NCBI GenBank assembly: GCA_026396715.1
Contig: JAPLWH010000026.1
Span: forward strand, 1 to 43,596
Direction of reading: 5' to 3'
DNA length: 43,596 nt
Source of the DNA: Candidatus Kaiserbacteria bacterium
GTDB taxonomy: Bacteria; Patescibacteriota; Minisyncoccia; Phycocordibacterales; Phycocordibacteraceae
Shown here one piece after another: positions 1,242-40,652 of the stretch. Every line of letters begins with the position of its first letter. Position 1 is the first letter of the stretch. A program made the translations under genes and the position numbers. Below the pieces are notes generated by a model. That model worked only from the letters and a program-made list of their open reading frames with translations, was not told where the DNA came from and did not search any database.

Positions 1242-1258
1242 ATGCGCATGCGTCTCCT

Positions 1259-1267
1259 CCCCCCCCC
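1259..1267 (+). repeat. C9 homopolymer between ATG(1248) and the signal-peptide-encoding frame of the DGR target
   Basis: The ATG 1242/1248 frame stops at TAG 1290-1292. Adding one C (C10) gives MRLLPPPSIFSTIAIVVGFFFFAPLGVQAAYY..., continuous with ORF 1325..4057. Confidence 0.8.
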
Positions 1268-1324
1268 TCAATTTTCTCGACTATCGCGATAGTCGTTGGC
1301 TTTTTTTTCTTCGCGCCGCTCGGG

Positions 1325-4057
1325 GTGCAGGCGGCGTACTATCTCCCCGGCGAAACGCTCAACCCTGCCTGCGCCCCCACGGATTCCGGGTGCGGCATTT
1401 CAAGCATTGTCGCCTCGAGCACTGCCAACAGTATTCCGTACTACGCCGCAAACGGCAGCGTCCTCTCTGCCACCTCGACATTCCAGATACTTTCAAACGG
1501 CACATCCTCGACGACGAATCTCATCGTCGGTAATGCACTCACTATCGGCACGCTCTCGGGTTTTCTGAAAGCAACGGCGGGGGCAGTTGCGACCGCTCTC
1601 GTGAATCTCACTTCAGATGTTACCGGAATTCTTCCAATCATAAACGGCGGCACCGGCCTCTCCGCGCTCTCCGGTAATCAGATTTTGTACACTAATTCCG
1701 CCGGCACCGCTTTCGTGCAAGTCGCCACCTCCTCGCTCTCAATCGGCGGCAACGCCGCCACCGTTACCACCAACGCCAACCTTACTGGCGATGTTACCTC
1801 GACTGGCAACGCCACCGCTATCGGCTCAAACAAAGTGACCATCGGTATGCTCGCCCAAGCGGCCGCCAACACCATCCTCGGAAACTTGACTGGAGCGGTA
1901 GGGAACATTACTGCCTTTGCAACTTCAACCCTCGGTATCGCTCTAGGAGACACTACAGGCACGCTCGCACTCGCTCGAGGCGGTACCGGCGTTATCTCGT
2001 TCACGTCGAATCAAATGCTGTATACGAACGCTGCGGGCGCACTCATCTCCATCGCAACCTCCTCGCTCAACATCGGCGGCACCGCACTTAACATTACTGG
2101 CCTCGCTGCGGTGGCAAACGGCGGCACTGGCTCGACCACGCTCTCGGGCATCTTAAAAGGCAATGGCACCTCGCAAGTCGGCACGCTCGTCGTCGGCACT
2201 GGCCTGATCTATGACGGCACGACGCTTTCCACCAATGGCACAGGCGTTACCTCTCTTGCTGCGCAGTATTCAACTGGACAGACCGGAGGCACCCAAACAT
2301 TTGCAACTTCAACAGCCGACACGAATCTCGGCATGAGTGTCGTTTCAAGCGGCAACATCCACACCTTCACGCCGTACTGGATCGGCACCTTGGCTGACGC
2401 GCGCATAGGAAGCGCGGCAGCGTGGAATGCGAAGCAAGCCGCGCTCTCTTTCATCTATCCGCTCATTAATTCCGCGAATACCATTACTTCCGCCCTCGCC
2501 ACGACCTCGTCCAATACCTGGGGCGGTACCCAAACGTTTACCAACGCTCCCATCCTCGCGGCGCTCTCGGGCATCGTCGGCGTAAATGCCGGCGCGAGCT
2601 ACTCGGTCTCCACGAGCACGCTCAACATCGGCGGCACCGCACTTAACATTACTGGCCTCGCTGCGGTGGCAAACGGCGGCACTGGCGTTGCCGCCATCGC
2701 GCTCGGATTCATTCCATTCGGAAATGGCACGAGTGCGGTCGCGACCTCGTCGAGCTTGTATTGGGACAGCACGAACAGTCGTCTCGGCATCGGAACGACC
2801 TCGCCACTATCGCTGCTCGCGATCGGCGGCGGCGTATCAATCGGCGCGGACTACAACCTCGCGGCACCGACGAACGGTCTCATCGTCGAAGGGAGCGTCG
2901 GTATCGGCACCACGACGCCATGGCGCAATTTCTCCCTCAAGGGCACGGTGTCGTCGCCTCAATTCGCGCTTGCGTACGATGCCACGCGCTACACACAGCT
3001 GCAGACCGACGCGTCGGGCGACCTCTCTATTTTCACTTCCGGCGGCAATACGCGTCTGCCCGACAACAACCTCTTCGTCTGCGCAGGCGGAGCCTGCCCG
3101 ACGCTTTCCATCACCGGCACCGGGAATCTCACGGTCGAGAATAAAATTACCGTCGGTTCGATAGAACAGTTTTGTCCCGCCGGCTACCTCTGGGTGCCAG
3201 GCCTCGCGCAGTACGGCACGCTCCCGGGTTTCTGCACCATGAAATACGAAGCGAAAAACAGCGCCGGCACTGCGGTCTCGGTTCCTGCCGGCGGGCCGTG
3301 GGTTAGCATAGACCAACCCACGGCCCGAGCCGCGTGCGAGGCGCTTGGCACGGGCTATCATCTCATCAATGAGGCGGAATGGATGACCATCGCAACCCAC
3401 ATAGCGACCCTTCCCATCAACGACACTGACACGGATGCCTCTCTGCAGCTTGCTACCGGCCACGGAGACAATGCGCCCGCGAGCGCGCTTGCCGCGGGCA
3501 CGAGCGCGACCGACCCGGTCGTCTCCGGCTGCAATCTTAGCGTTGATATGGAGAATGCCGCAAACGCTTACACGAGCACATGCCAAATCAGAGGCGCGGG
3601 AGCGGGCGGTTCGCTTGATGCCGATAATGGCTATTACGGCACGGGGCAAACGTGGGCAGCCACCGGCTATGTCTCGGGTGCTTCCAATAAGTCGCAGTTG
3701 CGCACCGCCGTCTTGCCGAACGGCACGGTGCTGTGGGATATCGCAGGCAATGTCTGGGAATGGACCGACGCGTATGTGAACGGCACGGCGGAAAAGCCGG
3801 CGGCGGTCACGGACGCTTGGCAGGAATTTAGTGCTATTACCAATTATGCAACTCTTAATTACGCTCGCCCCAAAAATCCTTCATGGACTTCTGCAAACGG
3901 GATTGGTCAATATTATTCCGGTACGGTCGCCGGACAGCGCGCCTTTATCCGCGGCGGGGATTGGGACTACGGTGCGGTTGGCGGCGTATTCACGCTGCAT
4001 CTGTCCGGTGCGCCGTCCAACTCGAGCACGAGCGTCGGGTTCCGCTGTTCCCGGTGA
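1325..4057 (+). CDS. DGR target protein: large Gly/Thr/Ala/Ser-rich surface protein with C-terminal FGE-sulfatase/C-type-lectin-fold domain (true start probably 1248 across the C9 tract)
   Basis: GGTG and GIGTTxP repeats typical of fibre-like surface proteins. The C-terminal domain has CPAGY..FCTMKYEAK, HLINEAEW, DIAGNVWEW, and RGG.W...GFRC at the very end, which is the VR. Confidence 0.9.
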   Translation: MQAAYYLPGETLNPACAPTDSGCGISSIVASSTANSIPYYAANGSVLSATSTFQILSNGTSSTTNLIVGNALTIGTLSGFLKATAGAVATALVNLTSDVTGILPIINGGTGLSALSGNQILYTNSAGTAFVQVATSSLSIGGNAATVTTNANLTGDVTSTGNATAIGSNKVTIGMLAQAAANTILGNLTGAVGNITAFATSTLGIALGDTTGTLALARGGTGVISFTSNQMLYTNAAGALISIATSSLNIGGTALNITGLAAVANGGTGSTTLSGILKGNGTSQVGTLVVGTGLIYDGTTLSTNGTGVTSLAAQYSTGQTGGTQTFATSTADTNLGMSVVSSGNIHTFTPYWIGTLADARIGSAAAWNAKQAALSFIYPLINSANTITSALATTSSNTWGGTQTFTNAPILAALSGIVGVNAGASYSVSTSTLNIGGTALNITGLAAVANGGTGVAAIALGFIPFGNGTSAVATSSSLYWDSTNSRLGIGTTSPLSLLAIGGGVSIGADYNLAAPTNGLIVEGSVGIGTTTPWRNFSLKGTVSSPQFALAYDATRYTQLQTDASGDLSIFTSGGNTRLPDNNLFVCAGGACPTLSITGTGNLTVENKITVGSIEQFCPAGYLWVPGLAQYGTLPGFCTMKYEAKNSAGTAVSVPAGGPWVSIDQPTARAACEALGTGYHLINEAEWMTIATHIATLPINDTDTDASLQLATGHGDNAPASALAAGTSATDPVVSGCNLSVDMENAANAYTSTCQIRGAGAGGSLDADNGYYGTGQTWAATGYVSGASNKSQLRTAVLPNGTVLWDIAGNVWEWTDAYVNGTAEKPAAVTDAWQEFSAITNYATLNYARPKNPSWTSANGIGQYYSGTVAGQRAFIRGGDWDYGAVGGVFTLHLSGAPSNSSTSVGFRCSR
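2064..2131 (+). repeat. Exact 68-bp internal direct repeat, copy 1 (copy 2 at 2619-2686)
   Basis: Identical 68 nt encoding LNIGGTALNITGLAAVANGGTG in both places. Confidence 0.95.
2619..2686 (+). repeat. Exact 68-bp internal direct repeat, copy 2
   Basis: Identical to 2064-2131. Confidence 0.95.
3940..4055 (+). repeat. DGR variable repeat (VR)
   Basis: 116-nt ungapped match to 4605-4720 with 14 mismatches, every one opposite a TR adenine. Encodes the last 38 residues of the target. Confidence 0.97.
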
Positions 4058-4101
4058 TTCCCGTAAGCACTATGAAATGCTTTCTGCCATCGCTCGCTCA
4101 T

Positions 4102-4127
4102 AAAAGAAAAATTCTGATTTTTCTTTT
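4102..4127 (+). other. Hairpin/cruciform downstream of VR (candidate DGR target-recognition element)
   Basis: AAAAGAAAAAT-TCTG-ATTTTTCTTTT: perfect 11-bp stem with 4-nt loop, ~45 nt after the target stop codon. Confidence 0.6.
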
Positions 4128-4219
4128 TGTCGCGCTCGCTCGGCAGTAGAACTTTGGTATGGATACTTTGAAACTTTGGCTTCCGAAAAAAATTATAAAA
4201 ACGCTCACTTCACGCGCCT

Positions 4220-4594
4220 ATGTTCGAACAACTTCCAATATTCGAGAAGACATACCAGATTATCCGCTGGCTCTATCCGACCATCAACAAGTTCCCGAAG
4301 TCCCAGCGCTTCGTGCTCGGACAGCAGATAGAGAACACAGCTCTTTTGATACTGACGGGCATCATTGCCGCCAACGGCGAGCGGGACAAGGTGCCCGCGC
4401 TCAAGCGCGTGAGCACGCTGCTCGACACACTGCGCATCCTCATCCGGCTTTCCAAAGACCTCGGGTTCATAAGCGTGAAGCAGTATGTGTTCGCCGCCGA
4501 GCGCGTAAACGAGATCGGGAAGATGCTCGGCGGATGGATGAAGCAGTCGGCTTCCTCCGCGCCCACGCCGGTCCGTGGGCAGGGCCGCGTCTAG
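4220..4594 (+). CDS. avd: DGR accessory variability determinant (Avd, four-helix bundle)
   Basis: LPIFEKTY...KFPKSQRFVLGQQIE...LRILIRLSKDLGFI...EIGKMLGGW signature; located between target and TR/RT. Confidence 0.92.
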   Translation: MFEQLPIFEKTYQIIRWLYPTINKFPKSQRFVLGQQIENTALLILTGIIAANGERDKVPALKRVSTLLDTLRILIRLSKDLGFISVKQYVFAAERVNEIGKMLGGWMKQSASSAPTPVRGQGRV

Positions 4595-4604
4595 ACACAG
4601 CTCT

Positions 4605-4720
4605 CGCCTTTATCCGCGGCGGGAATTGGAACAACGGTGCGATTGACGGCGTATTCACGCTGAATCTGAACAATGCGCCGTCCAACACGAACACGAACAT
4701 CGGGTTCCGCTGTTCCCGGT
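4605..4720 (+). ncRNA. DGR template repeat (TR)
   Basis: Non-coding copy of VR between avd and RT. It has 26 adenines, including 9 AAC/AAT codons in the VR frame. Confidence 0.97.
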
Positions 4721-4910
4721 ATTCATCAATGAGCACCACCGGTGCTCGCGGCCAGAACAGGACGTTTACGGACATCCCGTCCGCGCCAAGGAAGAATACT
4801 GACGCGACCCTTCTCGCGCGAAAGCGCGGGAGCATATCGGGCCCGTACCTCCGTTCGGCATGCGTCCGCGCATCCCGAGCGGAGCCAATGGGCCCCCGAA
4901 CGCACATACT

Positions 4911-5945
4911 ATGAATCCAACTTTCAATTCAGTGTGTTCATTCGAGAGCCTGTTGCGTGCGTACCGGCGAGCGCGCCGCGCAAGCCCTAAGAGCCACGAC
5001 ACGCTTGCTTTCGGCTGGCATCTTGAAAAAAATCTGCTACAACTTCGCGATGAGCTTATGAATGGCCAGTATCGGCACGGCGCATATCGCGAATTCGTCG
5101 TTGAGGATGCGAAGAAACGGCACATCAAGGCCGCCTCTTTCCGCGATCGCGTGGTGCACCACGCGATATGTAGCGCGCTCGAGCCAATTTTCGAGCGTCG
5201 GTTCATCGGTGACAGCTATGCCTGCCGCGCGGGCAAGGGAACACACGCGGCGCTCCGCCGGCTTGAAGTATGGCTGCGCCGCGGGGACGACCCATATGTG
5301 CTGTCGTGCGATATATCGAAGTATTTCGCCAGCATCAATCATGAGAACCTCATGATGCTCATCGCTTCACGGGTAAGCGATTCACAGCTCGTCAGTCTTT
5401 GCCGGAGCGTGGTGGAGAGCACCGAAGACGCTCCCGGCCGCGGTATCCCGATAGGGAACCTCACGAGTCAGCTCTTCGCGAATGTGTATCTCGACGCGCT
5501 TGACCATCACGCGAAGCGCGTCCTCGGTATCCGACGCTATATCCGTTATATGGACGATTTCCTCATCTTCGGCAAGGACACCGCGTCGCTTCACGAGACG
5601 AAGGCGCGGATTGTGGCGTTTCTCGGGAGTCGGCTCGGTCTCGTGCTCCATCCCAAAAAGGCGAATGTATTTCCGGTGGTCGTTGGCGTGCCGTTTCTCG
5701 GCTACCGTGTGTTCCGCTCTCATCGGCTGCTGCGCAAAAGCACCGTGATGCGGTTCGCCCGAAGGGTTCGGCAGTACAAACTCCTGCTCGCTTCGGGCGA
5801 TATGGAACCCGAAGCGTTTTTCGCAGGAATGCGGTCGTGGTCCGCCTATGCGGACGACGCGGCTTCAAGCGGCCTCAAGCGCTCGCTCGCGGGGCGCCTC
5901 GGCATCTCGTTTGCGCCCTTTATCAGCTTTCAAACAGCACTATGA
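4911..5945 (+). CDS. DGR reverse transcriptase (344 aa)
   Basis: KKRHIKAASFRDRVVHHA, CDISKYF, GIPIGNLTSQLFANVYL (DGR-type SQ motif), and YIRYMDDF catalytic motif. No obvious intron maturase or endonuclease extension. Confidence 0.95.
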   Translation: MNPTFNSVCSFESLLRAYRRARRASPKSHDTLAFGWHLEKNLLQLRDELMNGQYRHGAYREFVVEDAKKRHIKAASFRDRVVHHAICSALEPIFERRFIGDSYACRAGKGTHAALRRLEVWLRRGDDPYVLSCDISKYFASINHENLMMLIASRVSDSQLVSLCRSVVESTEDAPGRGIPIGNLTSQLFANVYLDALDHHAKRVLGIRRYIRYMDDFLIFGKDTASLHETKARIVAFLGSRLGLVLHPKKANVFPVVVGVPFLGYRVFRSHRLLRKSTVMRFARRVRQYKLLLASGDMEPEAFFAGMRSWSAYADDAASSGLKRSLAGRLGISFAPFISFQTAL

Positions 5946-6700
5946 AACGACTCGCAGATATTCTCGCGCATCACAACAGCGTACCCATCACTCTCGGGTT
6001 CTTGTTCCTTGCGAGCGGCACGGCACTCGCCGCCTCTCCTGCCGTCCGTGACGCGGTCATCGGCGGCGTTGTTACGGAGACGGTCAGCGTCGATAATAGC
6101 GCGATTATCAATGTCGACCTTGACCATTTCGACGCGAATATGACGATCATTGCGGTCACCGAGGATGCACAGAACTACTATGTCGCGTACCGCTACCGAA
6201 CCTTCAATGTCGAAGGCACTGCGTGGGAAGAAGTCCAAAAAGACAGCGTGCTTACTGTTGCGAAAGATTCGCTCCAAGACGGAGACCTGAAGACGCATGC
6301 GATCGAGCAGTTGCGGCAAGTAGTCGAGAGCGATCTCACATACCTCACACGCGTGCAAGCCGCAGAAATCGCGAACGGCCGAAGCAAGCCACAGGTCGCG
6401 ACGAGCTATCGCGGACTCGCAGGGTTCGCCATCGAGATGAAAGACATTCTTCTGCCGCCTGCCGCGCCTACGATCGTGCCTTCATTTCCTGTGGCGACAA
6501 CAACTACCCCGGCATCTGCACCCGAAGCCACCACCGCCGCTACAACCACCGCAACGACCACCTCTACTGCGGCAGTTGCTACGACAACCGCTTCGACTGA
6601 AGCCATCACAACAACCACGACAACCGCTCCGACCGCATCTACCGCTACAACAACGGCGCTCGAAGCCACCACCGCCACTACAACGAATTCCTCGTTGTAA
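5942..6700 (+). CDS. Secreted/membrane-anchored protein with Thr/Ala-rich low-complexity tail
   Basis: ATG overlaps the RT stop (ATGA 5942-5945). Hydrophobic N-terminus (ITLGFLFLASGTALAA) and a C-terminal run of TTTA/TTTT repeats. Confidence 0.8.
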   Translation: MKRLADILAHHNSVPITLGFLFLASGTALAASPAVRDAVIGGVVTETVSVDNSAIINVDLDHFDANMTIIAVTEDAQNYYVAYRYRTFNVEGTAWEEVQKDSVLTVAKDSLQDGDLKTHAIEQLRQVVESDLTYLTRVQAAEIANGRSKPQVATSYRGLAGFAIEMKDILLPPAAPTIVPSFPVATTTTPASAPEATTAATTTATTTSTAAVATTTASTEAITTTTTTAPTASTATTTALEATTATTTNSSL

Positions 6701-6771
6701 ATATAATGTCCAAAACACGAATCTTACTCGCGATTTCAAAATCTATGCCAAAGAATGCCTTATCTATAACG

Positions 6772-6806
6772 CCTAACAGAACAAGGTTTAACCTTGTTCT
6801 GTTAGG
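6772..6806. repeat. 35-nt near-perfect palindrome (REP-like or terminator)
   Basis: CCTAACAGAACAAGGTT-T-AACCTTGTTCTGTTAGG, intergenic. Confidence 0.75.
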
Positions 6807-6846
6807 GACACAAATATACTAATTTTGACTTATTATATAAATCACT

Positions 6847-7335
6847 ATGGAAACTACGACAAACCACACGCAAGAACAGCCGACGCGACGACTGCCGTTT
6901 TTGCGCCGCGCGTTCCGATTCTTCCGGCGATCTATCGTATGGATTGTTGTTATTGCAGTCCCCATACTCGCGTTTATGGCCGGGCGCGCGAGCATGTATC
7001 GTGCGTACCCAGAGCTTTCTGGAGCTGGGCAGGGGACCGCGATTCTCGCGGAAGTAGGGAAGCTCATCGAGCTTCCCTCGAATGAAACGCCCACCATAGC
7101 TACCATCAAGGATGCTGCGAGCGCCAAGCAGGGGCAGCCGTTTCTTGCTCCTGCCGAGAACGGCGATGTGCTCATCGTCTATCCGAATGCGCGAGAAGCC
7201 ATTTTGTACCGCCCTTCCTCAAACAAGATCATCGTGGTAGGGCCGGTACACACTACCGCGCCGCCGGCACCAAGCTTTGGGCCGAGTGCCACTTCCTCAA
7301 CCTATGTCGCCACGACAACTAAATCGAAGAAATAA
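6847..7335 (+). CDS. Hypothetical single-pass membrane protein
   Basis: Basic N-terminus, one TM segment (SIVWIVVIAVPILAFMAG), then a globular part (EVGKLIELPSNETPTIATI). Confidence 0.75.
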   Translation: METTTNHTQEQPTRRLPFLRRAFRFFRRSIVWIVVIAVPILAFMAGRASMYRAYPELSGAGQGTAILAEVGKLIELPSNETPTIATIKDAASAKQGQPFLAPAENGDVLIVYPNAREAILYRPSSNKIIVVGPVHTTAPPAPSFGPSATSSTYVATTTKSKK

Positions 7336-8839
7336 TCTCGCGTGCGCGGCGCTCCTGCTCCTCTTTCTTACGAGCGCTTCTTCCGCTCATGCGTCGCAGA
7401 CGAGCGGGACGATAGACTCGACATACAAATACGCATGGAGCAATGTCGCCGGGCATGTGAACTTCGCACCGACGACCGGCGGTCTCACTATTACCGACTC
7501 TGCTATCACTGGCTATGCGTGGAGCGCGAATACCGGCTGGATCAACTTTAATGCCACCCAAAGCCATGTCACGAACGATGGGGCAGGGAACCTCGGTGGC
7601 TATGCGTGGGACTCAGGCGCAGGCTGGGTCTCATTTACCGGTGTCACTATCAATTCATCTGGACGATTTCACGGCACCGCGACCGGCGGTACGGTCAATG
7701 GTGCGAGCTATGCCATCAATTTCAACTGCACGAACTGCGACGTGCGCACCGACTGGCGGCCCGCGTCGGCGAGAACAACGACGACCACAACTACTTCAAC
7801 ACCTGCACCATCCGTATCATCTGGCGGTGGCGGTGGCGGTGGTGGAGGCAGTGCTTCGTTCAGCGGACCCTCCTCTTCGGACAAGCTCCTTCGTCTTACT
7901 ATAGTGCCAAGCACTTCCTCACTACCCATTTCTGGCGGCATGGTTACCTACACCTACCACGTCGCAAATACAGGTGCGAGCTATGGTGCTATAAGCAATA
8001 TAGTCGTCGCTGACACCGTGTGCAGTCCTGTTAAATACATTTCCGGCGATGACAATGGCGATGCTCGCATCGATATCAAAGAAGTGTGGACATATGGCTG
8101 TACGGCGAACCTTTCTCAGACTACCAGAAATATTGCAAATGTGACCGGCTATGCTTCCGCCAGTCTCAATGCGTTCACTATTTCGCAAAACACCACGGTC
8201 ATTGTGGGCGCGCTTGCAGTCGTGATTCCTCCCTTGCGCGCCGCGACTGCTCCGTCTGCATCAGTCCCGTCATCCCAACCATATACTCGCAACCTCGCCT
8301 TAAGGTTTACCGGTAACGACGTGAAGCAGCTCCAACAATTTCTCAATACCCACGGCTTCGTTATTGCGAGTGCGGGCATCGGCTCTCCCGGCAACGAGAC
8401 CAGCTACTTTGGTCCCGCGACGCAAGCCGCTCTCGCAAAGTTCCAAGCGGCAAACGACATCATGCCTGCCGTCGGATACTTCGGTCCAGTTACCAGAGCT
8501 TTTGTCGAGAATATGAACGAAACTGCGAAAGCGGCAGCGACCCCTCCGCAAAAAACAATTCCAGCACCTTCCACCCCGGTTCCTGTTTCAACCACTACAA
8601 TCTTTACGAGAGATTTAGACTGGCACATGACCGGGGCAGATGTTATGGATCTGCAAGCTTTTCTCATCAAACAAAATACCGGCCCCGCAGCGCGAGATTT
8701 GATTGCTATAGAAGAGACTGGTTACTTCGGAACGCTCACTCGGAAAGCGTTGGCAGAGTTCCAGGCGGCAAACGGCATTACCCCGGCTGCCGGCTACTTC
8801 GGGCCAAAGACCAAAGAGTTTATTACACGAGTTCAATAA
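7304..8839 (+). CDS. Secreted cell-surface protein with two C-terminal peptidoglycan-binding (PG_binding_1-like) repeats
   Basis: Signal peptide (ACAALLLLFLTSASSAHA), YAWS..GWINF repeats, poly-Gly linker, Ig-like segment (VTYTYHVANTG), and two copies of G.DV..LQ.FL...GYFG..T..AL..FQAANxI.PA.GYFGP.T. Confidence 0.85.
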   Translation: MSPRQLNRRNNLACAALLLLFLTSASSAHASQTSGTIDSTYKYAWSNVAGHVNFAPTTGGLTITDSAITGYAWSANTGWINFNATQSHVTNDGAGNLGGYAWDSGAGWVSFTGVTINSSGRFHGTATGGTVNGASYAINFNCTNCDVRTDWRPASARTTTTTTTSTPAPSVSSGGGGGGGGGSASFSGPSSSDKLLRLTIVPSTSSLPISGGMVTYTYHVANTGASYGAISNIVVADTVCSPVKYISGDDNGDARIDIKEVWTYGCTANLSQTTRNIANVTGYASASLNAFTISQNTTVIVGALAVVIPPLRAATAPSASVPSSQPYTRNLALRFTGNDVKQLQQFLNTHGFVIASAGIGSPGNETSYFGPATQAALAKFQAANDIMPAVGYFGPVTRAFVENMNETAKAAATPPQKTIPAPSTPVPVSTTTIFTRDLDWHMTGADVMDLQAFLIKQNTGPAARDLIAIEETGYFGTLTRKALAEFQAANGITPAAGYFGPKTKEFITRVQ

Positions 8840-39174: not shown

Positions 39175-40539
39175 TCATTTCGAAAAATCCGCGTATGCCA
39201 TCTCGCGCTTGCCCTCGGGGATGACGCGCTCGATGGTGAATTGACCGTTTGCGAGTGACGCTTTGACTATCTTCATGCGTTTTCCTCCGCCAGCTGGCGG
39301 ATCGAAAAAATACGTACCGATGGTGTCGGCGTACGCGCGATACTTGTACCAATTCTCTTCGGCAGGCGCATCGAGCGAGAGCAGGCCGTCTTCTTTTTTG
39401 AGTTTCCCAGCGCGTGTTGCGTGCGCGTGTTCTTGTGGGACGGGAATGATGTCGCCCGAGAGGTAGGCAGGAAGTGTTTCGACAAGCAGTGCTGCGCCGA
39501 TCTCTATGAGTCGCGGGCGCAGTTCGCGCGCAGTTTCGCCGGGTGCGATCTCTGTTGCTTCTTGTGCGAGGACGTCGCCCGCATCAAGCTCTTTGACCAT
39601 TTTCTGCAGGCTCACGCCGGTCATCGTGTCGCCTGAAAGCAGTGCCGTCTCAAGTGGTGTCGCGCCGCGGTATTTTGGCAGCAGGGAATAATGCACGTTG
39701 ATGACGCCTTTCGGAAAGGCGCGTATTAGTGTTTCGGGAAATATTTTTCCATACGCGACGACGACTGCGTATTCGCATTCGTAGGCGGTGATCGCCTCGA
39801 TTGCCGCCGCATCGAGTTTTTCGGGAGTCATGACTGGAATGTCATGCGCAAGTGCGAGCGCTTTCGTCTCAGAAGGCGTGAGTACGAGGCCGCGACCCCG
39901 CGGCGCGTCGGGAGACGTCACGACAACAGCGGGCACGAAGCCGCTCTCTATGAGTGCGGCAAGCGTTTCGCTTGCGACGCCCGGCGTACCGAAATACGCG
40001 AAGCGATGCTCTGACCGGTGGGAGACGCGCGTGAGGTGCTCGGCATGATCGATGAAGAGAATGCCGTTCAAGTGATCCATCTCATGTTCGAATATCTGCG
40101 CCATGAGGCCGCCGGCACCGCGCTCAAAGGGCGTGCCGGTAACGTGTCGTGCTTTGATCGTGACGCGCTCGTGACGGCTCGTCGTGCCGTAGATGCCGCG
40201 CACCGAGAGGCAGCCCTCGTCCACGAATGCGCGCTTGCGGGAAGTTTTCAGGATTTCGGGATTGAGGTAGACATCGACTTCCGGCGGAGGCGGCGGAGGA
40301 AGTGTCTCGCCCGCTACTTTTCTCTGAAGGGGGAGTGTGCGGTCCTTCCGTACGATGAAGATGCGATAGGACATGCCAATTTGCGGCGCAGCGAGCGCGA
40401 CGCCTTCGGGCTGCTCTTCAAGCGCTTCGGACATGTCTTTGATGATCTGCGCGAGCTTGGGCGTGTCGAAAAGCCCGTCGGGTACGGGCTGAGCGATTTC
40501 GCGCAGTACTGGCGCGCCGTCTTGCACGATCTCTTTCAT
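39175..40539 (-). CDS. def-fmt: Peptide deformylase / methionyl-tRNA formyltransferase fusion (454 aa)
   Basis: N-half has GVALAAPQIG, EGCLSV and HEMDHLNG (PDF). C-half has FGTP, VVTSPDAPRGRG and NVHYSLLPKYRGATP (Fmt). No stop between the halves. Confidence 0.92.
   Translation of the reverse strand: MKEIVQDGAPVLREIAQPVPDGLFDTPKLAQIIKDMSEALEEQPEGVALAAPQIGMSYRIFIVRKDRTLPLQRKVAGETLPPPPPPEVDVYLNPEILKTSRKRAFVDEGCLSVRGIYGTTSRHERVTIKARHVTGTPFERGAGGLMAQIFEHEMDHLNGILFIDHAEHLTRVSHRSEHRFAYFGTPGVASETLAALIESGFVPAVVVTSPDAPRGRGLVLTPSETKALALAHDIPVMTPEKLDAAAIEAITAYECEYAVVVAYGKIFPETLIRAFPKGVINVHYSLLPKYRGATPLETALLSGDTMTGVSLQKMVKELDAGDVLAQEATEIAPGETARELRPRLIEIGAALLVETLPAYLSGDIIPVPQEHAHATRAGKLKKEDGLLSLDAPAEENWYKYRAYADTIGTYFFDPPAGGGKRMKIVKASLANGQFTIERVIPEGKREMAYADFSK
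39286..39301. repeat. 16-bp perfect palindrome inside the fmt domain
   Basis: TCCGCCAGCTGGCGGA, encoding D-PPAGG-G. Confidence 0.65.
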
Positions 40540-40652
40540 CCCGTTAGAAATAGGACGCGGACGCGCAGGCAAAGCCGCCGCCGAACCCTATTTGATTAGA
40601 GTTGATAATTGAACCCGTCTCTCGGTTGAGGCGTCCGCGATTTCTAACGGGA
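40539..40652. mobile_element. MITE-like element copy 1 (114 bp) at the def-fmt start codon
   Basis: 13-bp perfect TIRs TCCCGTTAGAAAT/ATTTCTAACGGGA, inner 9-bp IR, and TTCA direct repeats at 40535-40538 and 40653-40656. Confidence 0.75.

Follow-up and report, generated by a model that had tools for sequence, protein, structure and literature searches.

Evidence for a recently active chromosomal diversity-generating retroelement with a putative contingency tract in its target gene

The DNA analysed here, hereafter the window, is a whole NCBI contig of 43,596 nucleotides (JAPLWH010000026.1, Candidatus Kaiserbacteria), near one end of which lies what is, with very high probability, a complete chromosomal diversity-generating retroelement (DGR) that was recently active. 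Its components stand on the + strand in the order target gene with its variable region (VR), hairpin, avd, template region (TR) and reverse transcriptase (RT), an arrangement given in a preliminary description of the sequence and reproduced here. The target is annotated as an open reading frame (ORF) of 910 aa from GTG 1325 (1325-4057; ORF list and 910-aa NCBI product), and the VR (3940-4055) occupies its last 39 codons, ending 2 nt before the stop codon. There follow the hairpin (4084-4146), avd (4220-4594), the non-coding TR (4605-4720), which begins 10 nt past the avd stop codon, a structured spacer RNA (4750-4895) and the RT gene (4911-5945). Numbers preceded by L denote the related loci or contigs, from GTDB genomes and metagenomes, with which the window was compared. 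The closest relatives of RT, Avd and target carry the label Saccharibacteria, and the nearest relatives of the RT are labelled Saccharibacteria, Patescibacteria, Woesearchaeota and Pacearchaeota; from these labels we infer a probable affiliation with the candidate phyla radiation (CPR). The other genes of the window include those for pyruvate kinase, LexA, a Def-Fmt fusion, MurA, P-type ATPases, GH130 enzymes and tRNA-Asn. The identity, completeness and chromosomal position of the element and the CLec fold of its target, all previously proposed, are borne out by the TR/VR pair, Avd, the RT, a domain profile and this context.

The VR (3940-4055) and the TR (4605-4720) form an ungapped alignment of 116 nt in which the 14 mismatches without exception fall on TR adenines (9 A>G, 3 A>T and 2 A>C, among 26 adenines). 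These numbers had all been given before and were recovered; the hypergeometric probability of such a distribution by chance is P=2.4e-11. Read in the frame of the target, the TR holds nine AAY codons, seven non-silent codons with a single adenine and one silent codon (GTA). No stop codon can be reached from it, and the 15^9 x 4^7 = 6.3e14 possible protein variants agree, on recomputation, with the earlier figure of about 6x10^14. The VR ends in an adenine-free, GC-rich segment of 21 nt, TCGGGTTCCGCTGTTCCCGGT (4035-4055), which is identical to TR 4700-4720 and resembles the homology segment known as initiation of mutagenic homing (IMH); divergence between VR and TR begins directly after it. An adenine-free 18-mer from this segment occurs in the window, at up to three mismatches, only at VR and TR (0.04 expected), and the 43.6 kb therefore hold a single VR and none of the remote copies whose existence had been considered. 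Searches of JGI metagenomes and IMG/VR with the 3' half of the TR, its adenines replaced by N, returned no VR variants. Several related loci have a single TR for two or three VRs, which lie in target genes that are separate or arranged in tandem, namely L023 (VRs at 2892-3008 and 6642-6758), L068 (three VRs, 3095-5043) and L128 (two VRs).

The gene preceding the TR encodes the accessory variability determinant Avd (124 aa), which scores 116.5 bits against the NCBIfam equivalog NF033474 'DGR protein Avd' (cutoff 80) and 84 bits against Pfam bAvd (cutoff 40), and which matches PHROG 3206 'Avd protein of DGR'. A consensus scan places a promoter-like site, TTGAAA-17 nt-AATTAT, 5' of avd (4168-4196, + strand), in a region kept in L163, L166, L170 and L167. 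The RT (344 aa) starts at ATG 4911 in two independent gene calls, rather than at the alternative ATG 4860, and an exact-protein look-up of the form begun at ATG 4860 found no match; the protein clusters that contain the target and the RT are singletons. The best PDB match of the RT, nearly full length, is 8ub7 (E=6e-58, 200 bits), whose sequence matches, at 100% identity, brt of Bordetella phage BPP-1, the source of the founding DGR, and the next-best solved enzymes are those of group II introns (at most 85 bits) and of the DRT/Abi type (at most 32 bits). The protein carries YMDD, an Arg aligned with R74 of bRT, and IGNLTSQ, which is an instance of [I/V/L]GxxxSQ, the signature of DGR RTs, where group II and retroviral RTs have QGxxxSP (PMC7826257). 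The signature motif and Arg74 are the two positions of bRT shown to promote adenine mutagenesis (PMC7826257). In addition, the RT matches PHROG 1423 with 408 bits, and of the 80 loci in GTDB genomes with the closest RTs, 51 have an adenine-biased TR/VR pair of their own.

The proposition that this RT comes from another retroelement, be it a group II intron, a retron or a defence system, and that the 116-nt repeat is coincidental, can be regarded as effectively refuted. It is true that generic models match the protein (group II at 151 bits, a generic RT model as best match in PADLOC, and UG families), but all of them stay under their curated cutoffs, and the NCBIfam group II, retron and DRT models do so by far: TIGR04416 reaches 151 bits against a cutoff of 300, and over the RT part only, Retron St85 39.5 against 235, Drt3a 60.8 against 200 and Drt2 46 against 390. 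The 200 bits for the BPP-1 enzyme against at most 85 for any other, the presence of IGNLTSQ rather than QGxxxSP, the adjacent Avd and the adenine-only mismatches (P=2e-11) argue for a DGR, and the sole Rfam match in the window is a tRNA, neither intron RNA of group II nor retron RNA being recognised. On structure-match scores, the motif and the TR/VR pairs of the closest RT loci, the RT sides with the DGR enzymes, as had been anticipated, and not with those of group II introns or retrons.

The spacer between TR and RT measures 190 nt. A consensus fold of seven relatives places five helices in it (4750-4758/4779-4787, 4762-4767/4770-4776, 4811-4815/4828-4832, 4839-4843/4891-4895 and 4849-4862/4871-4884), with 36 pairs, 22 of which show compensatory changes; 91.9% of cells are paired, against 78.6% in shuffles (0 of 500 as good) and 29-55% with slid partners. 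In BPP-1, where nearly the whole spacer is required, the 2'-OH of spacer A56 serves as the primer of cDNA synthesis (PMC6182149). By analogy, the spacer RNA of the window would serve cDNA priming, although the priming site is not identifiable by sequence. A (CG)7 tract in the spacer of L001 was considered as a slippage tract and rejected, being the stem of a conserved spacer hairpin.

The hairpin between VR and avd is an imperfect structure of 63 nt with an inner A/T stem of 11 bp (4102-4127) and a TCTG loop. The hairpin is real (minimum free energy -18.7 kcal/mol, z=-3.72, 0 of 200 shuffles as stable), as the preliminary description held, but it is not a conserved part of the DGR. Together with the first copy of a 12-nt repeat it lies within an insertion of about 85 nt missing from L163, L166 and L170, the closest relatives that bear a DGR, in which the stop codon of the target leads straight into the conserved avd promoter region. 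Its candidacy as a conserved DGR cruciform was therefore rejected in favour of a lineage-specific insertion, and it may be a terminator. It must be held against the identification of the DGR that the target-recognition elements known from BPP-1 are not clearly present: a comparable significant hairpin follows the VR in only two of nine relatives, and no difference of the IMH/IMH* kind is visible between the 3' ends of VR and TR, where the basis of directionality is not evident. In many relatives, a tandem motif (A/T)ATCT(G/A) with a period of about 8-9 nt follows the target stop codon (…GTAG.AATCT..AATCT…), at L001 5183-5215, L008 5202-5225, L014 5255-5290, L017 5196-5220, L018 5190-5220, L028 5198-5222, L013 4656-4685 and L085 2205-2232. 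In the window this motif can be made out only faintly. It may stand in for the BPP-1 hairpin as an element of target recognition specific to the clade.

The C-terminal part of the target (about residues 618-910; 3176-4054, + strand) is assigned an FGE-type CLec fold. A profile made of the C-terminal 300 residues of the window protein and 14 homologous VR-bearing domains of related loci matches PDB 5vf4, the DGR variable protein TaqVP of Thermus aquaticus, which has a CLec fold (E=7e-23, profile positions 21-252), as well as FGE/SUMF structures (4e-9 to 1e-3), and Pfam FGE-sulfatase recognises 11 of the 15 profile members, the best at 1.3e-15. Two results count against the assignment: the window target taken alone reaches 20.8 bits with the same Pfam model, under the cutoff of 23.3, and a single-sequence AlphaFold prediction of the domain had a pLDDT of 32 and was discarded. 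The fold is called from profile homology because the structure prediction was unusable. Neither a direct phmmer search of the whole target against PDB nor a homology search with its mature N-terminus found a match. TaqVP resembles the target in being a DGR variable protein of CLec fold with a C-terminal VR that ends in a GxRC/GxR-like motif; it differs in its length of 385 aa without the 600-residue stalk and in organism and context, and the window target is too divergent for a direct phmmer match to it. TvpA of Treponema denticola, one of the FGE-type CLec targets, is likewise cellular and either secreted or at the surface, its VR being C-terminal and its CLec domain FGE-like. The FGE/SUMF structures matched by the profile recall targets of this type, whereas TvpA is a lipoprotein without a long stalk and is itself (2y3c) not a significant sequence match (E=1.5).

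Residues 1-480 of the annotated target are rich in Thr, Ala, Ser, Gly and Asn, 2-3% charged, and contain four NGGTG repeat modules, a composition compatible with an extended fibre. Counted from the upstream start discussed below, the target would be a protein of about 937 aa with a Sec-type signal peptide and a low-charge, repeat-rich stalk of about 600 residues; the variable domain is therefore most likely displayed outside the cell, where it might take part in the attachment of an episymbiont to its host. The surface location proposed earlier is thus supported by the signal peptide, which is nevertheless out of frame as assembled. Within the stalk-coding sequence a direct repeat of 100 nt with 86% identity (2032-2131 and 2587-2686) encodes …SSLNIGGTALNITGLAAVANGGTG… and might make the length of the stalk changeable; position 2657, where the Logan contig L081 starts, is within its second copy. 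Two loci labelled Saccharibacteria, L008 (3864-5201) and L015 (about 3230-4671), have a DGR target with a type IV pilin-like N-terminus (GFTLIELLIVIG and AFTLVELLIVIG, respectively), a C-terminal CLec VR and a G8 or G10 tract in the promoter region. In these the variable domain would, judging from the sequence, sit on a pilus-like appendage.

A fibre of this kind could also be the tail fibre of a cryptic prophage or of a phage-tail-like particle, rather than a cellular surface protein. The fibre-like composition and NGGTG repeats of the stalk would suit such an origin, as would a PHROG of unknown function that matches target residues 635-691 and the matches of a downstream gene, Z, to endolysin PHROGs through its peptidoglycan-binding domains. 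We nonetheless consider it very improbable, given that no phage structural gene was found in the 43.6 kb when capsid, terminase, portal, tail and integrase genes were sought, in keeping with the earlier remark that no phage genes are nearby, and that IMG/VR returned no match. Moreover, the module stands among housekeeping genes, its chromosomal contexts differ in relatives, and a CPR-restricted clade of cellular DGRs has been described (Roux 2021, PMC8144416).

Natural variation of the cellular surface protein proposed here can be read from a second allele. L169, a near-identical contig of 2,643 nt from another sequencing run (SRR25046534), corresponds to window 5936-7813 at 99.6% identity and to window 3301-4077 with 14 mismatches. 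Each of the 14 differences in these 777 nt of the target falls within the VR (3947-4032), opposite a TR adenine (P=3e-23), while the target outside the VR is identical over 661 nt. The VR of L169 also differs from the TR at 14 positions, all of them adenines, and neither allele has a non-adenine mismatch to the TR; across the 26 adenine sites, seven are unchanged in both alleles, ten changed in one, five changed alike and four changed differently. The confinement of variation to VR positions opposite TR adenines, which had been predicted for sequencing reads, is thus seen between assembled alleles. In a related population (L085, L086 and L087), 25 of 38 differences are in the VR, 24 of these 25 at TR adenines; L081 is identical to the window and carries no information on variation. 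The VR has recently been diversified in nature.

L169 has also lost the segment from hairpin to RT. Its sequence lacks hairpin-avd-TR-RT (1,870 nt), window 4077 being joined to 5948 inside a 12-nt direct repeat, AGCACTATGAAA, whose first copy lies at 4066-4077 and whose second, at 5936-5947 (both + strand), spans the RT stop codon and the ATG of the next gene, X (ATGA overlap). Because a repeat of 12 nt alone cannot misjoin a k=31 assembly, we read L169 as a real haplotype that has lost the diversifier. A clean loss of the diversifier between the 12-nt repeats is also possible in this locus and leaves a frozen VR allele. With the diversifier gone and the VR of L169 frozen, the alleles prove past diversification and not ongoing diversification. 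It could be argued that the element is a relic, that the TR/VR differences are historical and that the DGR no longer works in this lineage, considering that the target is out of frame and that a near-identical strain has lost avd-TR-RT, which makes the diversifier dispensable. We find this improbable, since avd and RT are intact with all catalytic motifs, no decay is visible and no non-adenine mismatch to the TR occurs in either VR allele, and the two alleles combine 14 adenine-site differences with 661 nt of identical flank, as expected of very recent diversification.

Turning from the 3' to the 5' end of the recently diversified target, the true start of the gene is most likely ATG 1242 (another ATG lies at 1248) and not GTG 1325, and the inferred full gene (1242-4057, + strand), delimited with the help of orthologues, would comprise the start codon, a C9 homopolymer (1259-1267), the signal peptide, the stalk and the CLec domain. 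GTG 1325 sits within the end of a signal peptide in the same frame (…IFSTIAIVVGFFFFAPLGVQA followed by AYY) that lacks a start codon. Directly before ATG 1242 a consensus scan detects a promoter-like site, TGGGCA-16 nt-TATAGT (1214-1241, + strand). The C9 run, a putative contingency tract, follows the start codon and precedes the hydrophobic core of the signal peptide, and the target as assembled is out of frame at this point; one additional C or two fewer restore the frame. With C10 or C7 the N-terminus reads MRMRLLPPPSIFSTIAIVVGFFFFAPLGVQA followed by AYYLPGE, that is, a charged n-region, a hydrophobic core and an AxA-like cleavage site. In L163, which shares about 80% nucleotide identity across the cassette, the corresponding sequence is MKNHASYSLSLSLSVALALGSIFLLGAPPAAQA followed after cleavage by ALYLPGETLDPACAPTDS, in frame, with (CT)10 at the site of the tract, and the contig of L171 begins within (TC)14, leading into …SVALALGSFLFLAPQATQA and then AYYLPGETLNPACAPTD. 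Both orthologues have the mature N-terminus of the window target behind an in-frame signal peptide, and they confirm the reading from ATG 1242 with a signal peptide. In L001 (Saccharibacteria, RT 60% identical), (AG)14 stands directly past the ATG. L163 has two ATGs upstream of its (CT)10 in different frames (6046-6090; MKNHASY… in frame, MRLTLSLSLSR* out of frame), and more than one tract-length class could therein permit expression, as in some Haemophilus contingency genes.

The target is thus in an OFF state as assembled, unless the homopolymer was miscounted. A slipped-strand change to C10 or C7 would switch it on, and a cell line probably switches its fibre off and on as well as changing the tip. 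It weighs against this proposal that C9 is known from a single consensus assembly and could be an assembly error. If the frameshift were an error of assembly or sequencing, the gene would be constitutively in frame and the tract would have no switching role; homopolymers are prone to such errors, NCBI annotates the gene as intact from GTG 1325, and the fact that L082, an independent assembly from another run, ends exactly at the last C of C9 is explicable by coverage loss, while it is also consistent with, though not proof of, a branch in the assembly graph. We regard an error as unlikely, albeit worth keeping in mind. An error would not lead one to expect long and differing repeats at the exact site in orthologues, (CT)10, (TC)14 and (AG)14, nor that C9 is the sole G/C run of at least 8 in the 43.6-kb window. 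Comparable tracts of relatives differ in length between otherwise identical contigs, and the tract would still be hypermutable even with C10 as the true modal length.

A different objection accepts the frameshift and supposes that transcriptional slippage or programmed frameshifting compensates for it, giving steady low expression and no heritable switching. Polymerase slippage at long homopolymers rescues frameshifted genes in reduced genomes, and the window appears to come from a lineage with small genomes. Such compensation seems decidedly improbable to us, as the dinucleotide tracts of the orthologues and the promoter-spacer tracts of the relatives are typical of slipped-strand switching of DNA and poor substrates for transcriptional slippage, and as length polymorphism is seen in relatives at the DNA level.

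The putative slipped-strand switch of the window would not be isolated among the DGRs of its clade. Tracts, defined as G/C homopolymers of at least 8 or dinucleotide repeats of at least 6 units, were sought in the 13 CPR/DPANN loci in which a VR could be detected and the 5' end of the target was complete. Nine of 11 tracts are at most 250 nt from the 5' boundary of the target ORF, a zone that makes up 4.1% of the sequence (P=1.7e-11), and a tract is present in 8 of the 13 loci but in 0 of 20 loci of other phyla. It counts against these figures that the pattern was first seen in the same loci that first tested it; for this reason 80 metagenome loci were added as an independent set, in which the pattern was replicated with four of eight tracts in the 5' zone of the target (P=2.7e-4). 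Coding tracts between the ATG and the membrane segment are in frame in L020 and L030 and out of frame in L022. Promoter-spacer tracts are found in L008 (TTGACA-N10-G8-TAATTT), in L018 (G9 directly before TATAAT) and in L028 ((TC)18 directly before TGGTATAAT).

A second hotspot consists of 10 tracts, G8 to G12, situated 23-194 nt upstream of the avd start (L085 2775-2783, L086 664-673, L087 692-699, L090 4404-4412, L095 242-251, L096 22-33, L097 620-631, L113 6216-6227, L020 2154-2164 and L088 118-126), which points to stochastic switching of the avd-TR-RT operon between on and off; upstream of avd in the window there is no such tract. The third lies in the RT itself, where six dinucleotide or G tracts, all in a single loop immediately ahead of the CDISKYF motif (about residues 126-130 of the window RT), encode (RE)n or GGGG inserts (L002 6376-6413, L007 1564-1599, L024 6364-6375, L084 1318-1329, L103 3084-3117 and L118 791-814). 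In L054 the RT frame is broken at a G8 near the C-terminus (6654-6661), and in L118 an in-frame TGA directly before the RT tract may reflect either a disrupted gene or the use of an alternative genetic code. Lengths vary between close relatives: L095 and L096 agree over 4,561 nt without a mismatch, their sole difference being G10 against G12, and L085, L086 and L087, more than 99% identical, have G9, G10 and G8, respectively, 48 nt upstream of avd. Over 105 kb of near-identical locus pairs, indels concentrate in the tracts (P=9e-9). On balance we lean, by a modest degree, towards the view that the CPR/DPANN DGR clade couples hypervariation with phase variation, through tracts at the 5' end or promoter of the target, upstream of avd and in a surface loop of the RT, so that display and mutagenesis machinery would both be stochastically switched. 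Were this the case, it would amount to a two-tier bet-hedging system and to a first regulatory principle for DGR activity. The literature searched contains no report that links DGRs with simple-sequence repeats, and homopolymers, frameshifts and phase variation go unmentioned in Roux 2021 (PMC8144416).

With respect to known systems, the element resembles the BPP-1 DGR (mtd-avd-TR-brt) in its order of target with 3' VR, avd, TR, spacer and RT, in its Avd family and in its adenine-only substitutions. The bRT is also the best structural match (200 bits), both RTs have IGxLTSQ, YMDD and the R74 equivalent, and both elements have a structured TR-RT spacer, of 190 nt here and 144 nt in BPP-1. Unlike BPP-1, it is chromosomal and cellular rather than phage-borne, and its target would be a secreted FGE-type CLec fibre of about 937 aa instead of the tail-fibre tip Mtd. 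It shows no visible IMH/IMH* asymmetry, its hairpin is A/T-rich, placed 28 nt after the VR and lineage-specific, and there is a frameshifting repeat tract in its target. Paul et al. reportedly described cellular DGRs in Patescibacteria (CPR) and in DPANN archaea in 2017. With the CPR/DPANN DGR clade the element shares its chromosomal position, the FGE-type CLec target and the closest RT relatives, and it belongs to that clade, DGR clade 2 of Roux 2021 (PMC8144416). The DGR core is therefore an ordinary member of a known clade and a kind of system already known; as one further member it matters little by itself. Beyond what is known go the target's frameshifting C9 run, as a putative contingency tract, and the association of such tracts with DGR cassettes across the clade, as well as a natural diversifier-deletion allele and a co-inherited envelope module, X-Y-Z, the latter two being absent from the account of CPR DGRs in Roux 2021 (PMC8144416); as read from sequence comparison, all of them call for read-level and experimental confirmation.

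The putative repeat-tract switch is the novel layer on top of the known DGR core. It recalls the contingency loci of Neisseria, Haemophilus and Campylobacter and the Bordetella fim genes, in which the gene for a surface protein has a G/C homopolymer or dinucleotide tract within its 5' coding region or its promoter spacer; as in these, orthologues are found in and out of frame, and tract lengths of relatives vary between otherwise identical sequences. The difference is that the putatively switched gene is here a DGR target, and that relatives also have tracts at the avd-RT operon and in the RT coding sequence. We propose that the avd-TR-spacer-RT unit would be transcribed and that Avd and RT would bind the structured spacer RNA and copy the TR into cDNA, faithfully at all bases except adenine. 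The mutagenised cDNA would then replace the VR via the adenine-free, GC-rich 3' homology, by analogy with BPP-1, and up to 16 codons in the ligand-binding face of the C-terminal FGE-type CLec domain could be rewritten. Besides this change of the tip by the DGR, switching of the fibre off and on by the C tract would constitute a second, coarser layer of variation. The regulation of DGR activity and of target display is largely unknown, and hypermutable tracts suggest a simple stochastic answer. The allele pair, one with the diversifier and the other without it and with a different frozen VR, offers a handle on the cost and benefit of a DGR.

Downstream of the RT, on the same strand, lie three genes named here X, Y and Z. 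X (5942-6700) encodes a protein of 252 aa, membrane-anchored or secreted, with a conserved domain of about 170 aa and a Thr/Ala-rich tail. Its family is unknown: searches of Pfam, NCBIfam, PHROG and PDB gave no match, and no fold could be assigned (AlphaFold pLDDT 56, best Foldseek E 0.14). The family comprises 499 clusters at E<=1e-10. In the conserved trio the tail of the X family is Thr/Pro-rich with a membrane anchor. Y (6847-7335), of 162 aa with one predicted membrane segment, has no family match and follows X in synteny in L163, L166, L167, L168, L169 and L171. Z (7304-8839) is a secreted protein of 511 aa with two peptidoglycan-binding domains (Pfam PG_binding_1, E=3e-20) and follows Y in conserved synteny. 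X-Y-Z are syntenic in L163 and L166-L171, with differing outer flanks; the trio lies at 5942-8839 in the window, 10001-12865 in L163, 3285-6134 in L166, 696-3283 in L167 and 3048-5052 in L168. X comes directly after the RT in 10 of 133 loci, directly follows the target in the cassette-less L167 and L169, and in L171 an unrelated ORF stands in place of avd-TR-RT. Because X adjoins the target in loci without avd-TR-RT, the trio belongs with the target and the diversifier lies between them. X was accordingly rejected as an accessory factor of the RT, as it stays with the target where avd-TR-RT is gone. Taken together, X, Y and Z suggest that these organisms, which are thought to live attached to other cells, have a surface apparatus that is as yet uncharacterised.

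Two further features of the window were noted. Between X and Y, at 6772-6806, a perfect inverted repeat of 17 nt with a loop of 1 nt (CCTAACAGAACAAGGTT A AACCTTGTTCTGTTAGG) is probably a terminator or attenuator. On the - strand, at 39175-40572, a single ORF of 465 aa joins the domains of peptide deformylase and methionyl-tRNA formyltransferase (Def-Fmt).

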